Positions 1-4,553 of a stretch of DNA of 4,553 nt are shown here, in pieces. Positions within the stretch are counted from its first letter, which is position 1, and each line of letters starts with the position of its first letter. The stretch lies in the IMG/VR virus record IMGVR_UViG_2534682256_000015; one strand, written 5' to 3'. Source of the DNA: a virus. Taxonomy: Duplodnaviria; Heunggongvirae; Uroviricota; Caudoviricetes. The notes below the pieces were generated by a model. That model saw only the letters and a program-made list of their open reading frames with translations, was not told where the DNA came from and did no database searches. The position numbers and the translations under genes are program-made.

Positions 1-57
1 CGGGGGAAAAACGTGTATTTTTAGTCATCCTGTTTACCTCTTTCTCAGGGAGTTTAG

Positions 58-82
58 TCTCCAGGATTCCCGGGGCGGTTCA
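58..82. repeat. Left copy of a 25-bp imperfect inverted repeat (tctccaggaTTCccggggcggttca); partner at 4473-4497 on the opposite strand
   Basis: Direct comparison of 58-82 with the reverse complement of 4473-4497: 9 identical bp, 3 adjacent mismatches (ttc vs aaa), 13 identical bp. Immediately preceded by an in-frame TAG (55-57) and immediately followed by the start of tfa homology. Confidence 0.8.
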
Positions 83-615
83 ATCTGCTGGCCGGAACTA
101 ATGAATTTATTGGTGAAGGTGACGCATACATTCCGCCTCATACAGGTCTGCCAGCAAACAGTACCGATATTGCACCGCCAGATATTCCGGCTGGCTTCGT
201 GGCTGTTTTCAACAGTAATGAGGCATCGTGGCATCTCGTTGAAGATCATCGGGGTAAAACGGTTTATGACGTGGCTTCCGGCGACGCGTTATTTATTTCT
301 GAACTCGGTCCGTTACCGGAAAATGTTACCTGGTTGTCGCCGGATGGAGAGTGTCAGAAGTGGAACGGCACATCCTGGGCGAAAGATGCAGAAGCAGAAA
401 AACTGTTTCGGGTACGGGAGGCAGAAGAAACAAAAAACAGCCTGATGCAGGTAGCCAGTGAGCATATTGCGCCACTTCAGGATGCCGTAGATTTGGATAT
501 TGCGACGGAGGAAGAGGCATCGTTACTGGCTGCATGGAAGACATATCGGGTATTGTTGAATCGTGTTGATACAACAGTAGCAGCGGATGTTGAGTGGCCA
601 GTCGCCCCACAATAA
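79..615 (+). CDS. tfa: Tail fiber assembly protein, lambda Tfa/TfaE type; 5' end atypical, no ATG/GTG/TTG in frame between the TAG at 55-57 and the GTG at 199
   Basis: Frame 1 is open from 58 to the TAA at 613-615. The translation [46 protein letters not shown]...[26 protein letters not shown] matches, from memory, the lambda/e14 Tfa family including the C-terminal EWPxxP end. The ORF-track start at 199 is an internal GTG; the usual N-terminus (about 15 residues) is missing. Confidence 0.8.
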
Positions 616-655
616 AAAGAAAAAGCCATCGACAGAAATATCGATGGCTTTATGT
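614..655. terminator. Bidirectional rho-independent terminator between convergent tfa and the acetyltransferase gene
   Basis: Perfect 11-bp stem AAAGCCATCGA (622-632) / TCGATGGCTTT (641-651) with an 8-nt loop. On the - strand the hairpin is followed by TTCTTTTT; on the + strand it is preceded by an A-run and follows the tfa stop directly. Confidence 0.65.
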
Positions 656-658
656 ACT

Positions 659-1231
659 CTATTTATACAATACAACACCACTCTTTTTAGTTATATATGT
701 GCAGTTTGATGGTATATCTTTATTTATAAAAGACATTGCACCTATTTTTACATTATCCCCAATTTTACGTGATAATCCAATGATGCAACAATTAGCTCCG
801 ATATCAACGTTACTACCAATTTTTACTCTTGAACTAGGCATATCACCATCTATCTGTCCAATGGTAGTATTCTGTCGTAATACCAGATTTTCACCCGCAT
901 CAACAGCAAAATGAACAACAATTCCAGCATGATGGGGAATTGTCAACCCTTTTCCAATATTTGCGCCCAATCCTATTTCACAACCAAACTTGTTAATTAT
1001 TTTACTGTTTAACTTTTTGGCTGCTTTCTTATGTAATTTATTACCATTAATATACATTTCGTTAGCCAACCGCCACCAGAAAAGGAAATTCCGGTTACGC
1101 TGCTTTTTCTCTCTTAAAAGCCTCCAGATATCCATACGTTTCCGCCGAATTACTTCATGTTTCCAGAAGTTTTTTAAATTAGTAGAGTTTCCAAATAAAA
1201 CAAAGTGAATTGCCATTAAGTAAGATAGCAC
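659..1231 (-). CDS. Hexapeptide-repeat (left-handed beta-helix) acetyltransferase, CysE/WcaB/EpsC serine-acetyltransferase-like; probable sugar/polysaccharide O-acetyltransferase
   Basis: Translation contains FLFWWRLANEMY...FGCEIGLGANIGKGLTIPHHAGIVVH followed by repeated [LIV]G-x4 hexapeptide units (KIGSNVDIGANCCIIG...KIGDNVKIGAMSF). Preferred start is the GTG at 1231-1229, preceded by AAGGAG (1243-1238) with a 6-nt spacer. Alternative in-frame starts are the GTG at 1264 (ORF-track start, no SD) and the ATG at 1216. Stop TAG at 659-661. Confidence 0.8.
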   Translation of the reverse strand: MLSYLMAIHFVLFGNSTNLKNFWKHEVIRRKRMDIWRLLREKKQRNRNFLFWWRLANEMYINGNKLHKKAAKKLNSKIINKFGCEIGLGANIGKGLTIPHHAGIVVHFAVDAGENLVLRQNTTIGQIDGDMPSSRVKIGSNVDIGANCCIIGLSRKIGDNVKIGAMSFINKDIPSNCTYITKKSGVVLYK

Positions 1232-1282
1232 GATAATCTCCTTAATTATTATTTCAGACCACACATGTTATAAGGTTAAGAG

Positions 1283-1311
1283 ATTATAAAATCCTGTTAT
1301 TTGTTATTCAA
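1283..1311 (-). promoter_or_regulatory. Sigma70-like promoter for the acetyltransferase gene: -35 TTGAAT, 17-bp spacer, -10 TATAAT
   Basis: The reverse complement of 1283-1311 reads TTGAAT-aacaaataacaggattt-TATAAT. It lies about 40-50 nt upstream of the SD/GTG at 1243-1229 in AT-rich DNA. Confidence 0.5.
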
Positions 1312-1344
1312 AAACAATTTTCTGAGAAGGACATACAACAGCAA

Positions 1345-1377
1345 GTCGCCAGTCACCTTCATCAGGAAATTGGCGAC
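1345..1377 (-). terminator. Possible weak terminator hairpin downstream of gpU (7-bp stem GTCGCCA/TGGCGAC, 19-nt loop)
   Basis: Inverted repeat 1345-1351 / 1371-1377 just after the gpU stop (1388-1390). The stem is short, the loop long and the T-tract poor. Confidence 0.25.
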
Positions 1378-1387
1378 ATACGTTAAA

Positions 1388-1882
1388 TCAGAGCAGCCCC
1401 TTAACTGAGCTGGCCGCGCTATTAAGGGATGATGTCACCTTATCTTTGAAGCCGGACAGCATATCGCTGAACGATGAGGATTGCAGGCGCTCCCGCAAAT
1501 CCTCATCACAGCGTTCAAGAGTCAGTGAAAATTCTATCTTTTTCGCCTTACCGTAGCGATCAAACTCGGAGCGGGTCGTATTCGTTCCGGTCAGGACATA
1601 CATGCCGTAAATCTGCCCGACGCCATCAATCAAAGGCCAAGGACGTCCTGTATATGCCTGCGTGGTCAACAACGACAGCGACACTTCGCCACCAGTAATC
1701 TCAGGATAAAGAACACCAGAAAGAACGATGCGATCATCACCTGCACCGATATACTGCCAGCTTGCTGAACGGTTAACGCGTTCATTTTTCACATGTCGCC
1801 AGCTTTTGTTTTGCTGTAACTGCTGATGCGGCAACGTGCGCAGCTCAAAAACAAACATGCCGTAGATCATCATCATGGCCAT
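1388..1882 (-). CDS. Phage tail protein, P2 GpU family
   Basis: 164-aa ORF with ATG at 1882 and TGA at 1388-1390. The pattern FVFELRTLPHQ...SWRH...RVNRS...LSGVLYPEITGG...WPLIDGVGQIYGMYVL...KIEFSLTLER matches my recollection of the GpU family. GAGGAG lies just upstream (1888-1893), overlapping the stop of the preceding ORF. Confidence 0.7.
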   Translation of the reverse strand: MAMMMIYGMFVFELRTLPHQQLQQNKSWRHVKNERVNRSASWQYIGAGDDRIVLSGVLYPEITGGEVSLSLLTTQAYTGRPWPLIDGVGQIYGMYVLTGTNTTRSEFDRYGKAKKIEFSLTLERCDEDLRERLQSSSFSDMLSGFKDKVTSSLNSAASSVKGLL

Positions 1883-1888
1883 GACTCC

Positions 1889-2725
1889 TCAATCTTTATC
1901 GTAAAAACTGCCACGCCTGGCACGGGCGCGCCGTTCCATTTCTGCCCTGACCATTTCGCCGACCAGTTTCGCCAGTTCGCGGGGATTCTGCGTAACAACG
2001 TTATGCAGATGAACATGAATTTCACCGCCAAATCCGGAGGCAACAGGCTCCCGGTTACGGGAAGTTGCAGGAACTGATGCCACTGGCGATCGTATGGCCT
2101 CCACCACCGGGCGGGAGCTGGCCGCAACAACAGGGACCAGCGCCGGAGGCAGCGGAGCCGGGACCACGGGTGTGATATTAATTGCGGGGGCAGGCTTACT
2201 GACCTGCGCAATCTTCCGCTCCTGCCACTCCCCACGAACAGCAAGTGCGCGGGGCAGGTTCTTAAAGACAATATCGCCGGGGCCAATGCGTTTTTTTGTC
2301 TCATCAACCAGCTTACCTGTGTTATCAGCAATTTTGCTGAGTCTGCGTAGCGTGCCGGTATTGCTGTCTGTGAGAGGTTTGTTGTCTTTGGGTTTATCAT
2401 CTCCGGTGCCATTGCTATTTCCCGCAGACTTCGGCGGATTGATTTTCGCAATGTCTCCCTGAAACAGAGCAACCTTGTCCTGAAGAATGGCCGCACGTTG
2501 TGCGTCTTCGATTTTCTTGCGCGCCCTTTCCGCTTCATCCGGAAGCACACCGAGTTTTTCAAGTATCCACGCCAGCGTATCCAGCAACATTTTTGCAGGC
2601 GTCAGAACAAGCTGTAACGCACCACCAAGAACGTTACCGAATACCTCGCCAGCACTGGTACATTTATCCAGCGTTTCCTTGCTGGACTCCATCGGTGACA
2701 GCAGCGATTTAAACCAGTTAAACAC
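1889..2725 (-). CDS. Tape measure protein, C-terminal segment (278 codons from the GTG at 2725); probably the continuation of the 2602-4443 ORF after a frameshift
   Basis: Open frame from the TGA at 2756-2758 to the stop at 1889-1891. It overlaps the 3' end of the upstream TMP ORF by 124 nt in a different frame. Contains a Pro/Ala-rich linker (PAPAINITPVVPAPLPPALVPVV). Its stop overlaps the gpU SD, which suggests translational coupling. Confidence 0.6.
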   Translation of the reverse strand: MFNWFKSLLSPMESSKETLDKCTSAGEVFGNVLGGALQLVLTPAKMLLDTLAWILEKLGVLPDEAERARKKIEDAQRAAILQDKVALFQGDIAKINPPKSAGNSNGTGDDKPKDNKPLTDSNTGTLRRLSKIADNTGKLVDETKKRIGPGDIVFKNLPRALAVRGEWQERKIAQVSKPAPAINITPVVPAPLPPALVPVVAASSRPVVEAIRSPVASVPATSRNREPVASGFGGEIHVHLHNVVTQNPRELAKLVGEMVRAEMERRARARRGSFYDKD

Positions 2726-4443
2726 CTGGCTGAACCGCTTCCGATTACGTCAAAAACAGGGCCAAACCGTTCAAAGGTGTCGCGCAACGGGGTCAGCCTT
2801 TCCATAATCCCGCTGAACACCCCGGCAAAGAAAGCCCTGATAGGATCCCAGTATTTCCAGATAAGAACGGCAGCTCCGGCAAGCGCAGCCACGATAAGAC
2901 CAACCGGACTGAACAACGCCCCGATAACGCCTCCCAGTAAAGAAACGGAACCCGTCACCATTCCCCATAGCGCAGGTAACACCCTGACGACATTCATTGA
3001 CCGGGTAAGAATGTCAAAACCAAGACGCAGGGTGGCCAGCTTCCCGTAAAGCACCCCAATAACCAGCGACAACGAGCCAATCGTTGCAGTCATTGCCAGC
3101 AACGCACCGCCTGCTATCAGTAGCTGGCGCGTCAGTACCGGATGGGCCTGCGCCAGCGAGGTGATTTTTTCAAGCACCCGCGTGAGCCACTGCGTGACAG
3201 AACGCAGCGGACCGTCAACCAGATCACTGATGCGAATACGAAGACCTTCCCATGCGCTGTCGAGATTTTTCAGGTCCCCATCAAGATTATCAGCCATTAC
3301 TTTTGCGACGCGATCGGCCTCTCCCCTTGCCCCCTGCAATTCTCTGGTCAGTTTTTGCAGCTCTCCTGAACCAGCCGCCGCAACAAGCGTCTGCAAACCA
3401 ACGAACGCCTCTTCTCCGGCGATGTCCTTGAAGAAGGAGACCTGGTCCACCTGTCCGTATTTTTGTGTCGCCTTATAGAGATCAAGCAGCACATCCTCCA
3501 TCGGGCGCATTTTGCCTCTGGCGTCAGCAACTGACACCCCCAGCTCTTTCAGTGCATCAGCCGCAGCTTTTGGCGGTGATGCAAGGCGGGACAGACTTGC
3601 GCGCATGGCCGTGCCAGCATCGCTTCCGCGAAGACCATTATTGGCAAGCATCCCGGCCATGGCCGCCGCTTCTTCAAGACTGATACCAAGTTTTGCGGCA
3701 ACCGGACCGGTATACTTCATGGTTTCGCCCAGCGCGCGTAAATCAGTATTGGTCCGGGTAAATGCTGCTGTCAGCGTATCGCCCACCCGGTCCATTTGAT
3801 CGGCTGTCAGGTTGAACTGTGTGAGGATATTGGAGCCTATATCAGCCGTCTCGCCGAGTTCGACGCCACCTGCCAGCGCCATATTAAGAACACCGGGCAA
3901 TGCGGCCTGAATGGCCTGCGGAGTAAAACCAGCCATTGCCAGAAAGCTCTGCCCACTGGCGGCATCACTCGCAGTAAACTGTGTTTCAGCAAGTTTTAAC
4001 GCCTGCTCACGCAGCGCCTTAAACTGCGGGCTGTTTTTGTCGATTCGCGTCAGTGCCTGAACGCGGGACATCTCTTTGCCGAACCCGATCGCAGGCTGCA
4101 AAAAACGCCCGGCAGCATAGCCGCCCGCCGCTGCCGCACCAATTGCCAGCGCACCACCTGTTTTCAGTTTTCCCGCGGTTTCCTGCGCGTGCGAATACCG
4201 CTCACGCGCCTGCGTTACACGCGCAAGCGCCTGCCGTTCGCGTTCAAGCTGGTTGTTGTATTGTTCGGTGCGTCTGATGGCCTGCTGAATGGTGTTATCG
4301 CTGCCTGTCAGGGAAATGCCGTGGCGTTTCAGCTCTCCGCCAAGTTCCCTCATTTTCTGAATTTCCCGTGTGCGCGATTCATTCAGGCGTTCAAGCCGGG
4401 TGCTTAACTGCTGCATCAGCTTTTGTTGTTTTTCGCTGAGCAC
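2602..4443 (-). CDS. Phage tail tape measure protein, N-terminal and central part (613 codons, GTG start)
   Basis: Long Ala/Gly/Leu-rich ORF with a coiled-coil-like N-terminus (EKQQKLMQQLSTRLERLNESRTREIQKMRELGGELKR), a central region typical of tape measure proteins, and hydrophobic segments near the end (LLIAGGALLAMTATIGSLSLVIGVLYG...). The last ~35 codons before the stop at 2602 are Cys/Trp/Arg-rich and look out of frame, while the overlapping frame reads as normal protein. Confidence 0.8.
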   Translation of the reverse strand: MLSEKQQKLMQQLSTRLERLNESRTREIQKMRELGGELKRHGISLTGSDNTIQQAIRRTEQYNNQLERERQALARVTQARERYSHAQETAGKLKTGGALAIGAAAAGGYAAGRFLQPAIGFGKEMSRVQALTRIDKNSPQFKALREQALKLAETQFTASDAASGQSFLAMAGFTPQAIQAALPGVLNMALAGGVELGETADIGSNILTQFNLTADQMDRVGDTLTAAFTRTNTDLRALGETMKYTGPVAAKLGISLEEAAAMAGMLANNGLRGSDAGTAMRASLSRLASPPKAAADALKELGVSVADARGKMRPMEDVLLDLYKATQKYGQVDQVSFFKDIAGEEAFVGLQTLVAAAGSGELQKLTRELQGARGEADRVAKVMADNLDGDLKNLDSAWEGLRIRISDLVDGPLRSVTQWLTRVLEKITSLAQAHPVLTRQLLIAGGALLAMTATIGSLSLVIGVLYGKLATLRLGFDILTRSMNVVRVLPALWGMVTGSVSLLGGVIGALFSPVGLIVAALAGAAVLIWKYWDPIRAFFAGVFSGIMERLTPLRDTFERFGPVFDVIGSGSARCLTGLNRCCHRWSPARKRWINVPVLARYSVTFLVVRYSLF

Positions 4444-4465
4444 TGTACCCGTGCGTTGTAACTGA

Positions 4466-4553
4466 TTAAGGGTGAACCGCCCCGGTTTTCCTGGAGAGTG
4501 TTTTATCTGTGAACTCAGGCTGCCAGATCATCGTTTCCGATGGAAGCATAATA
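4466..4553 (-). CDS. 3' end of an upstream ORF that runs off the window (...MIWQPEFTDKTLSRKTGAVHP*); possibly the frameshift-extended tail assembly chaperone (P2 E+E' / lambda G-T analogue)
   Basis: This frame is open from the window edge to the TAA at 4466-4468, 23 nt upstream of the TMP GTG. A second frame, the -1 partner, terminates earlier at the TGA 4528-4530. The gene is partial and only 29 codons are visible. Confidence 0.3.
   Translation of the reverse strand, partial: IMLPSETMIWQPEFTDKTLSRKTGAVHP
4473..4497. repeat. Right copy of the 25-bp imperfect inverted repeat (reads tctccaggaAAAccggggcggttca on the - strand)
   Basis: See feature 58-82. It lies 30 nt upstream of the TMP GTG start and contains a short internal dyad AACCG-GGG-CGGTT that the left copy lacks. 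Confidence 0.8.

Follow-up and report, generated by a model that had tools for sequence, protein, structure and literature searches.

A moron of a P2-like prophage of Escherichia coli O157:H7 encodes a CysE/WcaB-like acetyltransferase that may modify a surface glycan

Our analysis concerns a 4,553-bp stretch of viral DNA (IMG/VR record IMGVR_UViG_2534682256_000015, here called the window) and, within it, an AT-rich cassette at positions 616-1387 that carries a single acetyltransferase gene. By sequence comparison the window is a P2-like prophage remnant of Escherichia coli O157:H7, whose chromosomes match it at 99.9-100%. Sequence comparison also assigns the encoded protein to the left-handed beta-helix (hexapeptide-repeat) acetyltransferases of the CysE/WcaB/EpsC clade; it is predicted to be soluble, and serine is very unlikely to be its substrate. 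We interpret the island as a moron (a self-contained cargo cassette) carried by the P2-like prophage. We favour, with middling confidence, a role as a cytoplasmic glycan O-acetyltransferase used for lysogenic conversion; the core of the lipopolysaccharide (LPS) as the specific acceptor is a more doubtful proposal. The protein family, PHROG 2154, was already catalogued and is a member of no curated equivalog. New here are its tail-to-tail linkage to tail-fibre assembly genes (tfa), a block shared between P2-like and P1-like phages, and homologues that lie inside glycan clusters.

Among the NCBIfam models, each of which has its own cut-off (25 matches listed, E-values down to 2e-21), EpsC scored best with about half of the required score (NF041874, 76.2 bits against a cut-off of 150). 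The cysE models (TIGR01172, 62.4 against 210.65 bits; PRK11132, 36.6 against 397) and the WcaB models (TIGR04016, 54.4 against 194.65; PRK10191, 55.8 against 196) came next, and the gene lies in a prophage, outside the wca cluster. LacA, NeuD, WbbJ and other models scored far below these three, and no curated cut-off was reached; the Pfam Hexapep model gave 24.4 bits, slightly below its gathering score of 27. In a sequence search of the PDB the top matches were CysE structures (6wye, E = 1.5e-12), with residues 54-180 of the protein aligned to CysE residues 140-262 and the alignments starting at CysE residue ~114-140. The AlphaFold2 monomer model (predicted local distance difference test score, pLDDT, 75.8) has an N-terminal helical domain (~residues 2-82) at ~90 and a beta-helix at 55-70. 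All of the best 50 Foldseek matches in the PDB were serine acetyltransferases, at template modelling scores of 0.5-0.68 and weak E-values (2.8e-3 or worse); since the weak E-values reflect the poorly modelled beta-helix half, we use the fold result just as support for a CysE-like architecture. An earlier reading of this DNA, made without database searches (the sequence-only reading), had proposed a CysE/WcaB-like hexapeptide acetyltransferase, and the best family, PDB sequence and fold matches, which are to EpsC, CysE and WcaB, bear it out. No transmembrane segment was found (maximum Kyte-Doolittle score over 19 residues, 1.1). The profile of PHROG 2154, annotated 'unknown function', matched at E = 2.9e-87 (residues 13-190 on positions 3-181 of 185); with 155 IMG/VR stretches, this match shows a strong phage association of the gene.

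The residues of the active site point away from serine. The catalytic residues His158 and Asp143 of E. coli CysE have their aligned counterparts in His100 and Glu85. Among 48 homologues the conservation of His100 reaches at least 90%, and most members have an acidic residue (Asp or Glu, consensus Asp) at position 85. In CysE, serine and cysteine are bound by Asp157, Arg192 and His193 (PMC9547175 for these and the catalytic residues). In the alignment to Yersinia pestis CysE (3gvd) these three positions are Pro99, Ser134 and Arg135, and the 192/193 loop is variable and gapped across the 48 homologues, which share motifs of their own (FWWRLA, RQNTTIG and IGAMSF-NKD-P). A genuine serine O-acetyltransferase, serving as an auxiliary metabolic gene whose O-acetylserine boosts cysteine synthesis or induces the CysB regulon in the lysogen, would fit the RefSeq name 'serine O-acetyltransferase', the closest solved structures and fold matches, all of them CysE, and the conserved pair of catalytic His and acid residue. 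We nevertheless give this explanation very little credence. The protein reaches 62 of the 211 bits required by TIGR01172 and 37 of the 397 of PRK11132, and with Asp157, Arg192 and His193 replaced as well it is not a housekeeping CysE. Its N-terminal helical domain has ~80 amino acids where that of CysE has ~140, and only the distal CysE part is matched. CysE has a CysK-binding C-terminal tail ending in Ile, and the window protein ends in ...VLYK. Moreover, homologues are found in LPS and glycan clusters, not in cys operons.

Another explanation is a small-molecule or xenobiotic acetyltransferase, sugar-detoxifying like LacA and Maa or antibiotic-modifying like CatB and Vat, that is carried as a fitness or resistance gene. 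The gene is mostly solitary on mobile elements, as resistance genes are, and among both models and structures LacA (E = 1.4e-7) and Maa (E = 2e-4) match weakly. These matches stay far below the cut-offs (LacA, 31 against 347 bits; Maa, 21 against 314) and are weaker than those to CysE, WcaB and EpsC, and the N-terminal helical domain is of the CysE/WcaB type. The sequence-only reading had kept CatB/Vat-type antibiotic acetylation as an option and called for a structure comparison; no chloramphenicol or streptogramin acetyltransferase of this kind appeared among the 25 NCBIfam matches listed, the 47 PDB sequence matches or the best 50 fold matches. In the loci inspected there was also no association with integrons or resistance regions, and we consider such a function improbable.

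Support for a sugar substrate, and hence for the glycan O-acetyltransferase that we favour, is indirect and comes from homologues inside LPS-core or glycan clusters. In a survey of genome loci taken one per species (80 loci, 40-70% identity), about 10 of the 80, from about five lineages, had a glycan or LPS context, with homologues that are 40-48% identical; of the contexts off mobile elements, these are the ones that recur. In Zophobihabitans the acetyltransferase gene follows two genes of glycosyltransferase (GT) family 9 and a polysaccharide pyruvyltransferase gene and is followed by a GT25 gene; an Orbaceae genome has a GT9 gene and then the acetyltransferase gene; in Pseudocitrobacter an LpxL-like gene and a GT2 gene precede it; and in a Pseudomonas sp. 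it stands after a GT2 gene, with a UDP-glucose dehydrogenase gene ~1.5 kb downstream. In Pseudomonas abyssi and Halopseudomonas the order is hldE, msbA, a Kdo/WaaP-type kinase gene and the acetyltransferase gene, facing a pseudaminic-acid cluster. The homologue in these loci (L061, L063, L066, L071 and L079; 41-44%) is located directly 3' of the Kdo/WaaP-family kinase gene, and the pseudaminic-acid cluster comprises NeuB/PseI, GNAT, GT28-like and cytidylyltransferase-aminotransferase genes. This homologue is by its position a candidate core or nonulosonic-acid O-acetyltransferase; the enzymes that O-acetylate the Pseudomonas LPS core are still to be identified (PMC8005017). The glycan-cluster homologues carry the family motifs and show the same sub-threshold order of matches (EpsC > CysE > WcaB) as the window protein, and their context is suggestive of a sugar substrate. 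Because near-identical copies of the window gene occur in O157, O26, O111, O121 and O104 strains, serotype conversion of a single O antigen is less likely than a target common to many serotypes.

The second line of evidence is the linkage to tail-fibre genes. A convergent (tail-to-tail) tfa gene lies beside the acetyltransferase gene in 65 of the 76 IMG/VR loci with a downstream neighbour, at a distance of 4-87 nt, and the linkage persists from 99% down to 45% identity, where it includes Gilliamella-type prophages (45%). Across these loci the two proteins diverge roughly in parallel: acetyltransferase identities of 99%, 88-93%, 85%, 67% and 45% are accompanied by tfa identities of 99%, 92-94%, 68%, 46% and 37%, respectively. 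Comparison of an O26 P2-like prophage (L003, 7803-9606) with the P1-like phage JL22 revealed a 1.8-kb block of 93.8% identity, which comprises tfa and the acetyltransferase open reading frame (ORF) as well as the final ~0.6 kb of the fibre gene and ends 8 nt from the start codon. Window positions 82-1230, that is, tfa and the acetyltransferase ORF, are 91.4% identical to JL22. Upstream of the gene the P1-like copy differs and has a TTGACA-18-TAAAAT of its own, and the promoter-like site of the window lies outside the shared block. Receptor-binding tip, chaperone and acetyltransferase gene have thus been exchanged jointly between phage types that are unrelated.

That fibre tip, tfa and acetyltransferase travel as a block, and that the tfa junction is kept from 99% to 45% identity, would also agree with a virion-related role in which the enzyme acts with the tail-fibre chaperone on the fibre or in fibre maturation. 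We hold this to be extremely unlikely: the same type of fibre tip and tfa occurs without the gene in ~2,900 more genomes, including the Rac and Qin prophages of K-12; in the canonical P2 order the gene is antisense to the late operons; it is intact where the fibre, tape-measure and D genes of the prophage are destroyed; and many homologues are found outside phages. Pairwise ratios of nonsynonymous to synonymous substitution rates (dN/dS) among alleles are 0.07-0.26, and the ORF is of full length in essentially all 80 IMG/VR loci, except for copies cut by a contig end, which together indicate a working gene under purifying selection. Since this selection acts in a prophage with decaying structural genes, the gene probably does something for the host.

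Among 5,426 complete E. coli genomes the island is present in 530 (~10%), and its carriers comprise the O157:H7 strains listed and many O26, O111, O121 and O104 (including O104:H4) strains; 66 placements are on plasmids, several of them ~95-100 kb in size. In the intact P2-like prophages of O26 strain RM8426 and of NCCP15648, H and G (tfa) read towards the acetyltransferase gene, which is oriented against them together with U, T, E, FII and FI, and D follows in the direction of H and G. The reversal of the FI-U operon thus characterises the lineage, and an O157-specific rearrangement, which we had considered, is ruled out. In a whole lineage of P2-like prophages (L003, L004, L186) the operon FI-FII-E-T-U runs opposite to its direction in canonical P2, with the direction of H, G and D unchanged; both the inversion and the variable tfa-gpU slot may be linked to invertase activity. 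A 67% homologue occurs in the canonical P2 order, convergent with G and followed by FI. The slot between G and FI is P2 'moron position 2', which in CFT073 is filled by an unrelated acyltransferase-3 gene, neaT (PMC3573123), so that the known cargo location between tail genes assumed by the sequence-only reading could be named.

The content of this slot differs between otherwise syntenic genes: in JJ1886 of sequence type 131 the space from tfa to gpU is occupied by a recombinase gene and by part of a second fibre gene whose tfa is frameshifted, and in the Rac and Qin prophages of K-12 fibre gene and tfa occur without the acetyltransferase gene. No empty site with the tfa of the window abutting its gpU was found; in 494 genomes these flanks are joined, and the gene is present in all rows sampled. 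JL22, the P1-like phage, has the gene (named 'sacF') between the tail-fibre assembly genes U and tfa, adjoining the cin invertase gene, in what is the invertible C-segment region of P1. Further homologues are located in Citrobacter phiNP and other P2-like phages (listed in PMC6456863), at a prophage end beside hok (57%) and in a Salmonella islet beside an integrase gene (64%). On EAF-type plasmids of enteropathogenic E. coli (L010-L013) a solitary 50% homologue at 6001-6594 adjoins psiA and insertion sequence (IS) remnants, ~2.3 kb downstream of genes that match the bfp operon (type II secretion ATPase, prepilin peptidase and transglycosylase). The GC content of the gene is below that of its surroundings in 77 of the 80 genome loci of homologues.

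Location in a variable P2 slot invites an intracellular role in anti-phage defence or inter-phage competition, for example by acetylation of some component or metabolite that an infecting phage requires, since the P2 cargo genes old, tin and fun/Z are anti-phage genes (PMC9122126, PMC3573123). Related copies are also found near the record ends of P2-like ESSI2 phages and at prophage edges. However, none of the 5,027 models of PADLOC-DB 2.0 matched at E-values up to 1, we know of no defence system that uses a CysE-like beta-helix enzyme, and the glycan-cluster homologues point to sugars; this explanation, too, appears improbable to us. The survey of Rousset et al. covered the A/Q hotspot only, not the tfa-side slot (PMC9122126).

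The features of the cassette and its surroundings are collected in Table 1. The sequence-only reading had described an AT-rich island at 616-1320 in DNA of 55-60% GC. The contrast was confirmed, with 32.8% GC in this interval, but the flanks are lower than stated (49.6% for 1-615 and 54.2% for 1321-4553), and the right end has to be moved, as the variable segment reaches to ~1382-1387, the stop of gpU. Homology to a sister prophage without the gene (JJ1886) restarts at 1382 and a second hairpin lies at 1345-1377, which together define the cassette as a 33% GC island between tfa (50% GC) and gpU with the tape-measure gene (54% GC). As predicted, the island holds one gene, which RefSeq also annotates (573-bp coding sequence). 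The ORF list gives 1264..659; the actual start is the GTG at 1231, because AAGGAG is positioned 6 nt upstream, the RefSeq coding sequence agrees and the same codon is ATG in P1-like alleles.

The expression signals proposed by the sequence-only reading fared unequally. The strong Shine-Dalgarno sequence was recovered, and the block from this sequence to the start codon, AAGGAGATTATCGTG, is unchanged across 8 related loci. The perfect terminator hairpin, too, was substantiated by its stem, T-run and folding energy; it sits between the stop codons of the convergent tfa and acetyltransferase genes, and in diverged homologous loci a hairpin of other sequence is always found between the two stop codons. 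For the near-consensus promoter the match itself holds and six closely aligned P2-like loci share both hexamers without change (they are degraded in L154 and L163), but the density of such sites is at chance level, and TTGAAT-17-TATAAT is consistent with a promoter, short of proof. The second hairpin is probably the terminator of the gpU (FI-U late) operon. In an Rfam scan of the whole window no family matched in the island, and the sole match was IS009 in tfa. In two loci (L014 and L017) the ~110 nt upstream of the gene, with promoter, 5' untranslated region, Shine-Dalgarno sequence and start (upstream of 5001), are near-identical to the window and the protein is only 71% identical, pointing to a recombination breakpoint where the acetyltransferase gene begins. 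In L014 a tfa fragment and a class I methyltransferase gene are inserted between the acetyltransferase gene and the full tfa.

Table 1. Features of the 4,553-bp window (positions in the window).
Feature	Position	Strand	Details
IS1203/IS629-type IS3 element, end	1..81	-	98.8-100% identity to IS1203 copies in locus L185; RefSeq: IS3 family transposase
tfa, tail-fibre assembly gene (P2 gpG / lambda Tfa type)	85..615	+	Pfam Caudo_TAP, E = 2.6e-40; RefSeq: 'tail fiber assembly protein'
Intrinsic terminator hairpin (predicted)	651..622	-	13-bp perfect stem, 4-nt loop, T-run on the minus strand; free energy (dG) -19.3 kcal/mol, z = -6.4
Acetyltransferase gene, PHROG 2154	1231..659	-	190 amino acids; GTG start 1231-1229, TAA stop 661-659; RefSeq WP_000954203.1
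Shine-Dalgarno sequence AAGGAG	1243..1238	-	6 nt 5' of GTG; read from sequence
Sigma-70-like promoter TTGAAT-17-TATAAT (putative)	1311..1283	-	10/12 consensus matches; 3' end 52 nt upstream of start codon
Second hairpin (predicted)	1345..1377	-	just 3' of gpU stop, within the AT-rich variable segment; dG -21.2, z = -4.6
P2 gpU-like tail protein gene	1388..1882	-	Pfam Phage_P2_GpU, E = 1.5e-38; right-hand backbone boundary of the cassette
Tape-measure gene, frameshifted	from 1889, to 4472	-	two overlapping ORFs
IS1203/IS629-type element, opposite end	4473..4553		same IS type as at 1..81

The P2-like prophage remnant, which we take to be that of the CP-933T/Sp13 type, is placed between yecA and the tRNA-Leu/Cys/Gly cluster in O157:H7 records. 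It is defective: the fibre gene is gone, tfa lacks 16 codons, the tape-measure gene is frameshifted, D is truncated and IS ends flank the window. The IS ends belong to opposite sides of an IS1203/IS629-type IS3 element, as if the window were a draft contig that stops at an IS copy on either side. The left-hand element cuts off the 5' end of tfa, which has lost its first 16 codons to it, and forms the boundary of the preserved segment. In the complete genomes among the top matches listed there is no IS at 4472 inside the tape-measure gene, and this insertion may be specific to the source strain. The two tape-measure ORFs (4443..2602 and 2725..1889) overlap at 2602-2725; RefSeq calls the gene 'frameshifted' in all O157 records inspected, and it is intact (2.8 kb) in the O26 and NCCP15648 prophages. 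The Rfam match is full-length (RF02111, 'IS009'; 380-578 on the plus strand, 191 bits against a gathering score of 117) and falls in the 3' half of the tfa coding sequence, so that this candidate small RNA family coincides with a conserved tfa segment. The prophage of the window also has a ParM-type partition pair (L001, 12715-13993), flanked by the replication gene A and by the IS that has taken the place of the remaining phage DNA. This position is the A/Q hotspot, and such pairs are the cargo type reported for about one quarter of P2-like phages (PMC9122126).

Several known systems resemble the cassette in part. The sequence-only reading had cited NeuO of the K1 prophage CUS-3, a polysialic-acid O-acetyltransferase whose substrate, a surface glycan, serves phages as a receptor. 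This parallel holds for superfamily and life-style, as both genes are prophage-borne, AT-rich and non-essential cargo of temperate coliphages and encode hexapeptide-repeat enzymes, the window protein being by prediction, like NeuO, a soluble O-acetyltransferase dependent on acetyl-CoA. It fails at the level of the branch, since the sialate-type NeuD/NnaD sugar acetyltransferase model (TIGR03570) gave 30.7 bits against 160.8 and the window protein has a CysE/WcaB-type N-terminal helical domain. It also fails for phase variation: no tandem repeat like the 5' heptanucleotide repeat of NeuO was found in 550-1450, even at a score of 30. Furthermore, the window gene occurs in many non-K1 serotypes, so polysialic acid is excluded as a general substrate. 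With WcaB, EpsC and CysE, to which it has its best sequence and fold matches, the protein shares a short helical N-terminal domain followed by a beta-helix, and the catalytic His/acid pair. It differs in that their cut-offs are missed by far (76 of 150, 62 of 211 and 55 of 195 bits for EpsC, CysE and WcaB), that the three serine-binding residues of CysE are absent, that it has motifs of its own and that its gene is outside any colanic-acid, exopolysaccharide or cys locus.

NeaT, encoded by a P2-like prophage of E. coli CFT073, is alike in its position (P2 moron position 2), its orientation relative to the tail genes, its nature as a single gene of ~30% GC and its predicted role as an acyltransferase of envelope glycans, and it has a virulence phenotype (PMC3573123). 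It is unlike the window protein in being an integral-membrane acyltransferase-3 (PF01757), unrelated in sequence and fold to a soluble beta-helix. In concept, the cassette also recalls Oac of Sf6 and the PhiV10 O-acetyltransferase, with which temperate phages block re-infection by acetylating the LPS that they use as receptor; the PhiV10 enzyme modifies the O157 antigen (PMC11854483). These are membrane acyltransferase-3 enzymes of the periplasmic side (PMC3573123, PMC9558356), whereas a cytoplasmic beta-helix enzyme would act before export. A receptor-disabling gene inherited with a receptor-recognising gene, the logic that we propose, has parallels in llp of T5, which lies beside pb5, and in cor of phi80 and N15. 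The products of llp and cor are lipoproteins that bind FhuA directly and are not enzymes. In the window gene, moreover, the receptor link is drawn from gene linkage, and it is weakened by the abundance of fibre tip and tfa without the gene.

For the glycan O-acetyltransferase that we favour, we infer that the gene would be transcribed in the lysogen from its own sigma-70-type promoter, with some read-through from the upstream gpU operon also possible in the phage lineage of the window. The product would be a soluble, cytoplasmic, acetyl-CoA-dependent O-acetyltransferase, presumably forming trimers. Our best guess for its acceptor would be the LPS core oligosaccharide; an alternative would be another glycan, lipid-linked or nucleotide-activated, that many E. 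coli serotypes share. After export of the acetylated glycan the cell surface of the lysogen would be altered, which could mask a receptor from phages, including those with the co-transferred fibre tip. Such masking could lower the loss of progeny on debris, and host-relevant surface properties could also shift.

A number of observations weigh against this reading. O-acetylation of the E. coli LPS core is, to our knowledge, not an established modification, and H-NS often silences AT-rich foreign DNA in E. coli. Promoter-like sites are no denser than in shuffled sequence (4 observed and 3.2 expected in this AT-rich kilobase), so that expression stays a matter of inference, and the beta-helix half of the structural model is of low confidence. 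Most homologues are solitary and without glycan neighbours (at the prophage end on the hok side, on the EAF plasmid, in the Salmonella islet and in Rahnella); in the Rahnella lineage the homologue lies between genes for a POT transporter and a GGDEF protein. The linkage to the fibre is optional: the fibre tip and tfa type (~90% identical) is found in 3,168 genomes and the full block with the gene in 265, and the copies without it include stfR/tfaR and stfQ/tfaQ of K-12 Rac and Qin. With fibre tip and tfa ~10 times commoner without the gene than with it, an obligatory coupling of the gene to the fibre type is ruled out, and the end of the fibre operon may be a place that tolerates insertions, which would account for part of the adjacency to tfa. 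We found no functional study of any PHROG 2154 member; the presence of the gene in a P1-like phage was termed unexplained by the authors (PMC9603915), and it is given as a generic 'fitness' gene in a list of C. rodentium prophages (PMC6456863). The main text of the O157 proteome paper does not mention the gene, and the P2/P4 hotspot papers do not cover the slot or acetyltransferases.

If the gene is silent or has a trivial substrate, the cassette is merely another uncharacterised moron. If it acetylates an envelope glycan, phage typing and the host range of phage therapy would be affected, serology and immune recognition of major food-borne pathogens could be affected as well, and the enzyme would be a cytoplasmic beta-helix counterpart of the membrane-bound converting enzymes of the Oac/GtrC type. 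The homologues in LPS-core clusters are candidates for core O-acetyltransferases. Co-transfer with fibre tip and chaperone suggests a rule by which receptor-binding and receptor-masking functions travel together. In its boldest form, which we regard as unlikely and offer as speculation, PHROG 2154 and its chromosomal relatives would be a new family of cytoplasmic LPS-core O-acetyltransferases and the third element of a portable 'host-range cassette', in which the receptor-binding fibre tip, its chaperone and a receptor-masking enzyme pass jointly between unrelated phage types (P2-like myoviruses and P1-like phage-plasmids). If this were true, the cassette in enterohaemorrhagic E. coli of serogroups O157, O26 and O111 would modify the LPS core and change the susceptibility of these strains to other phages and possibly to host factors.

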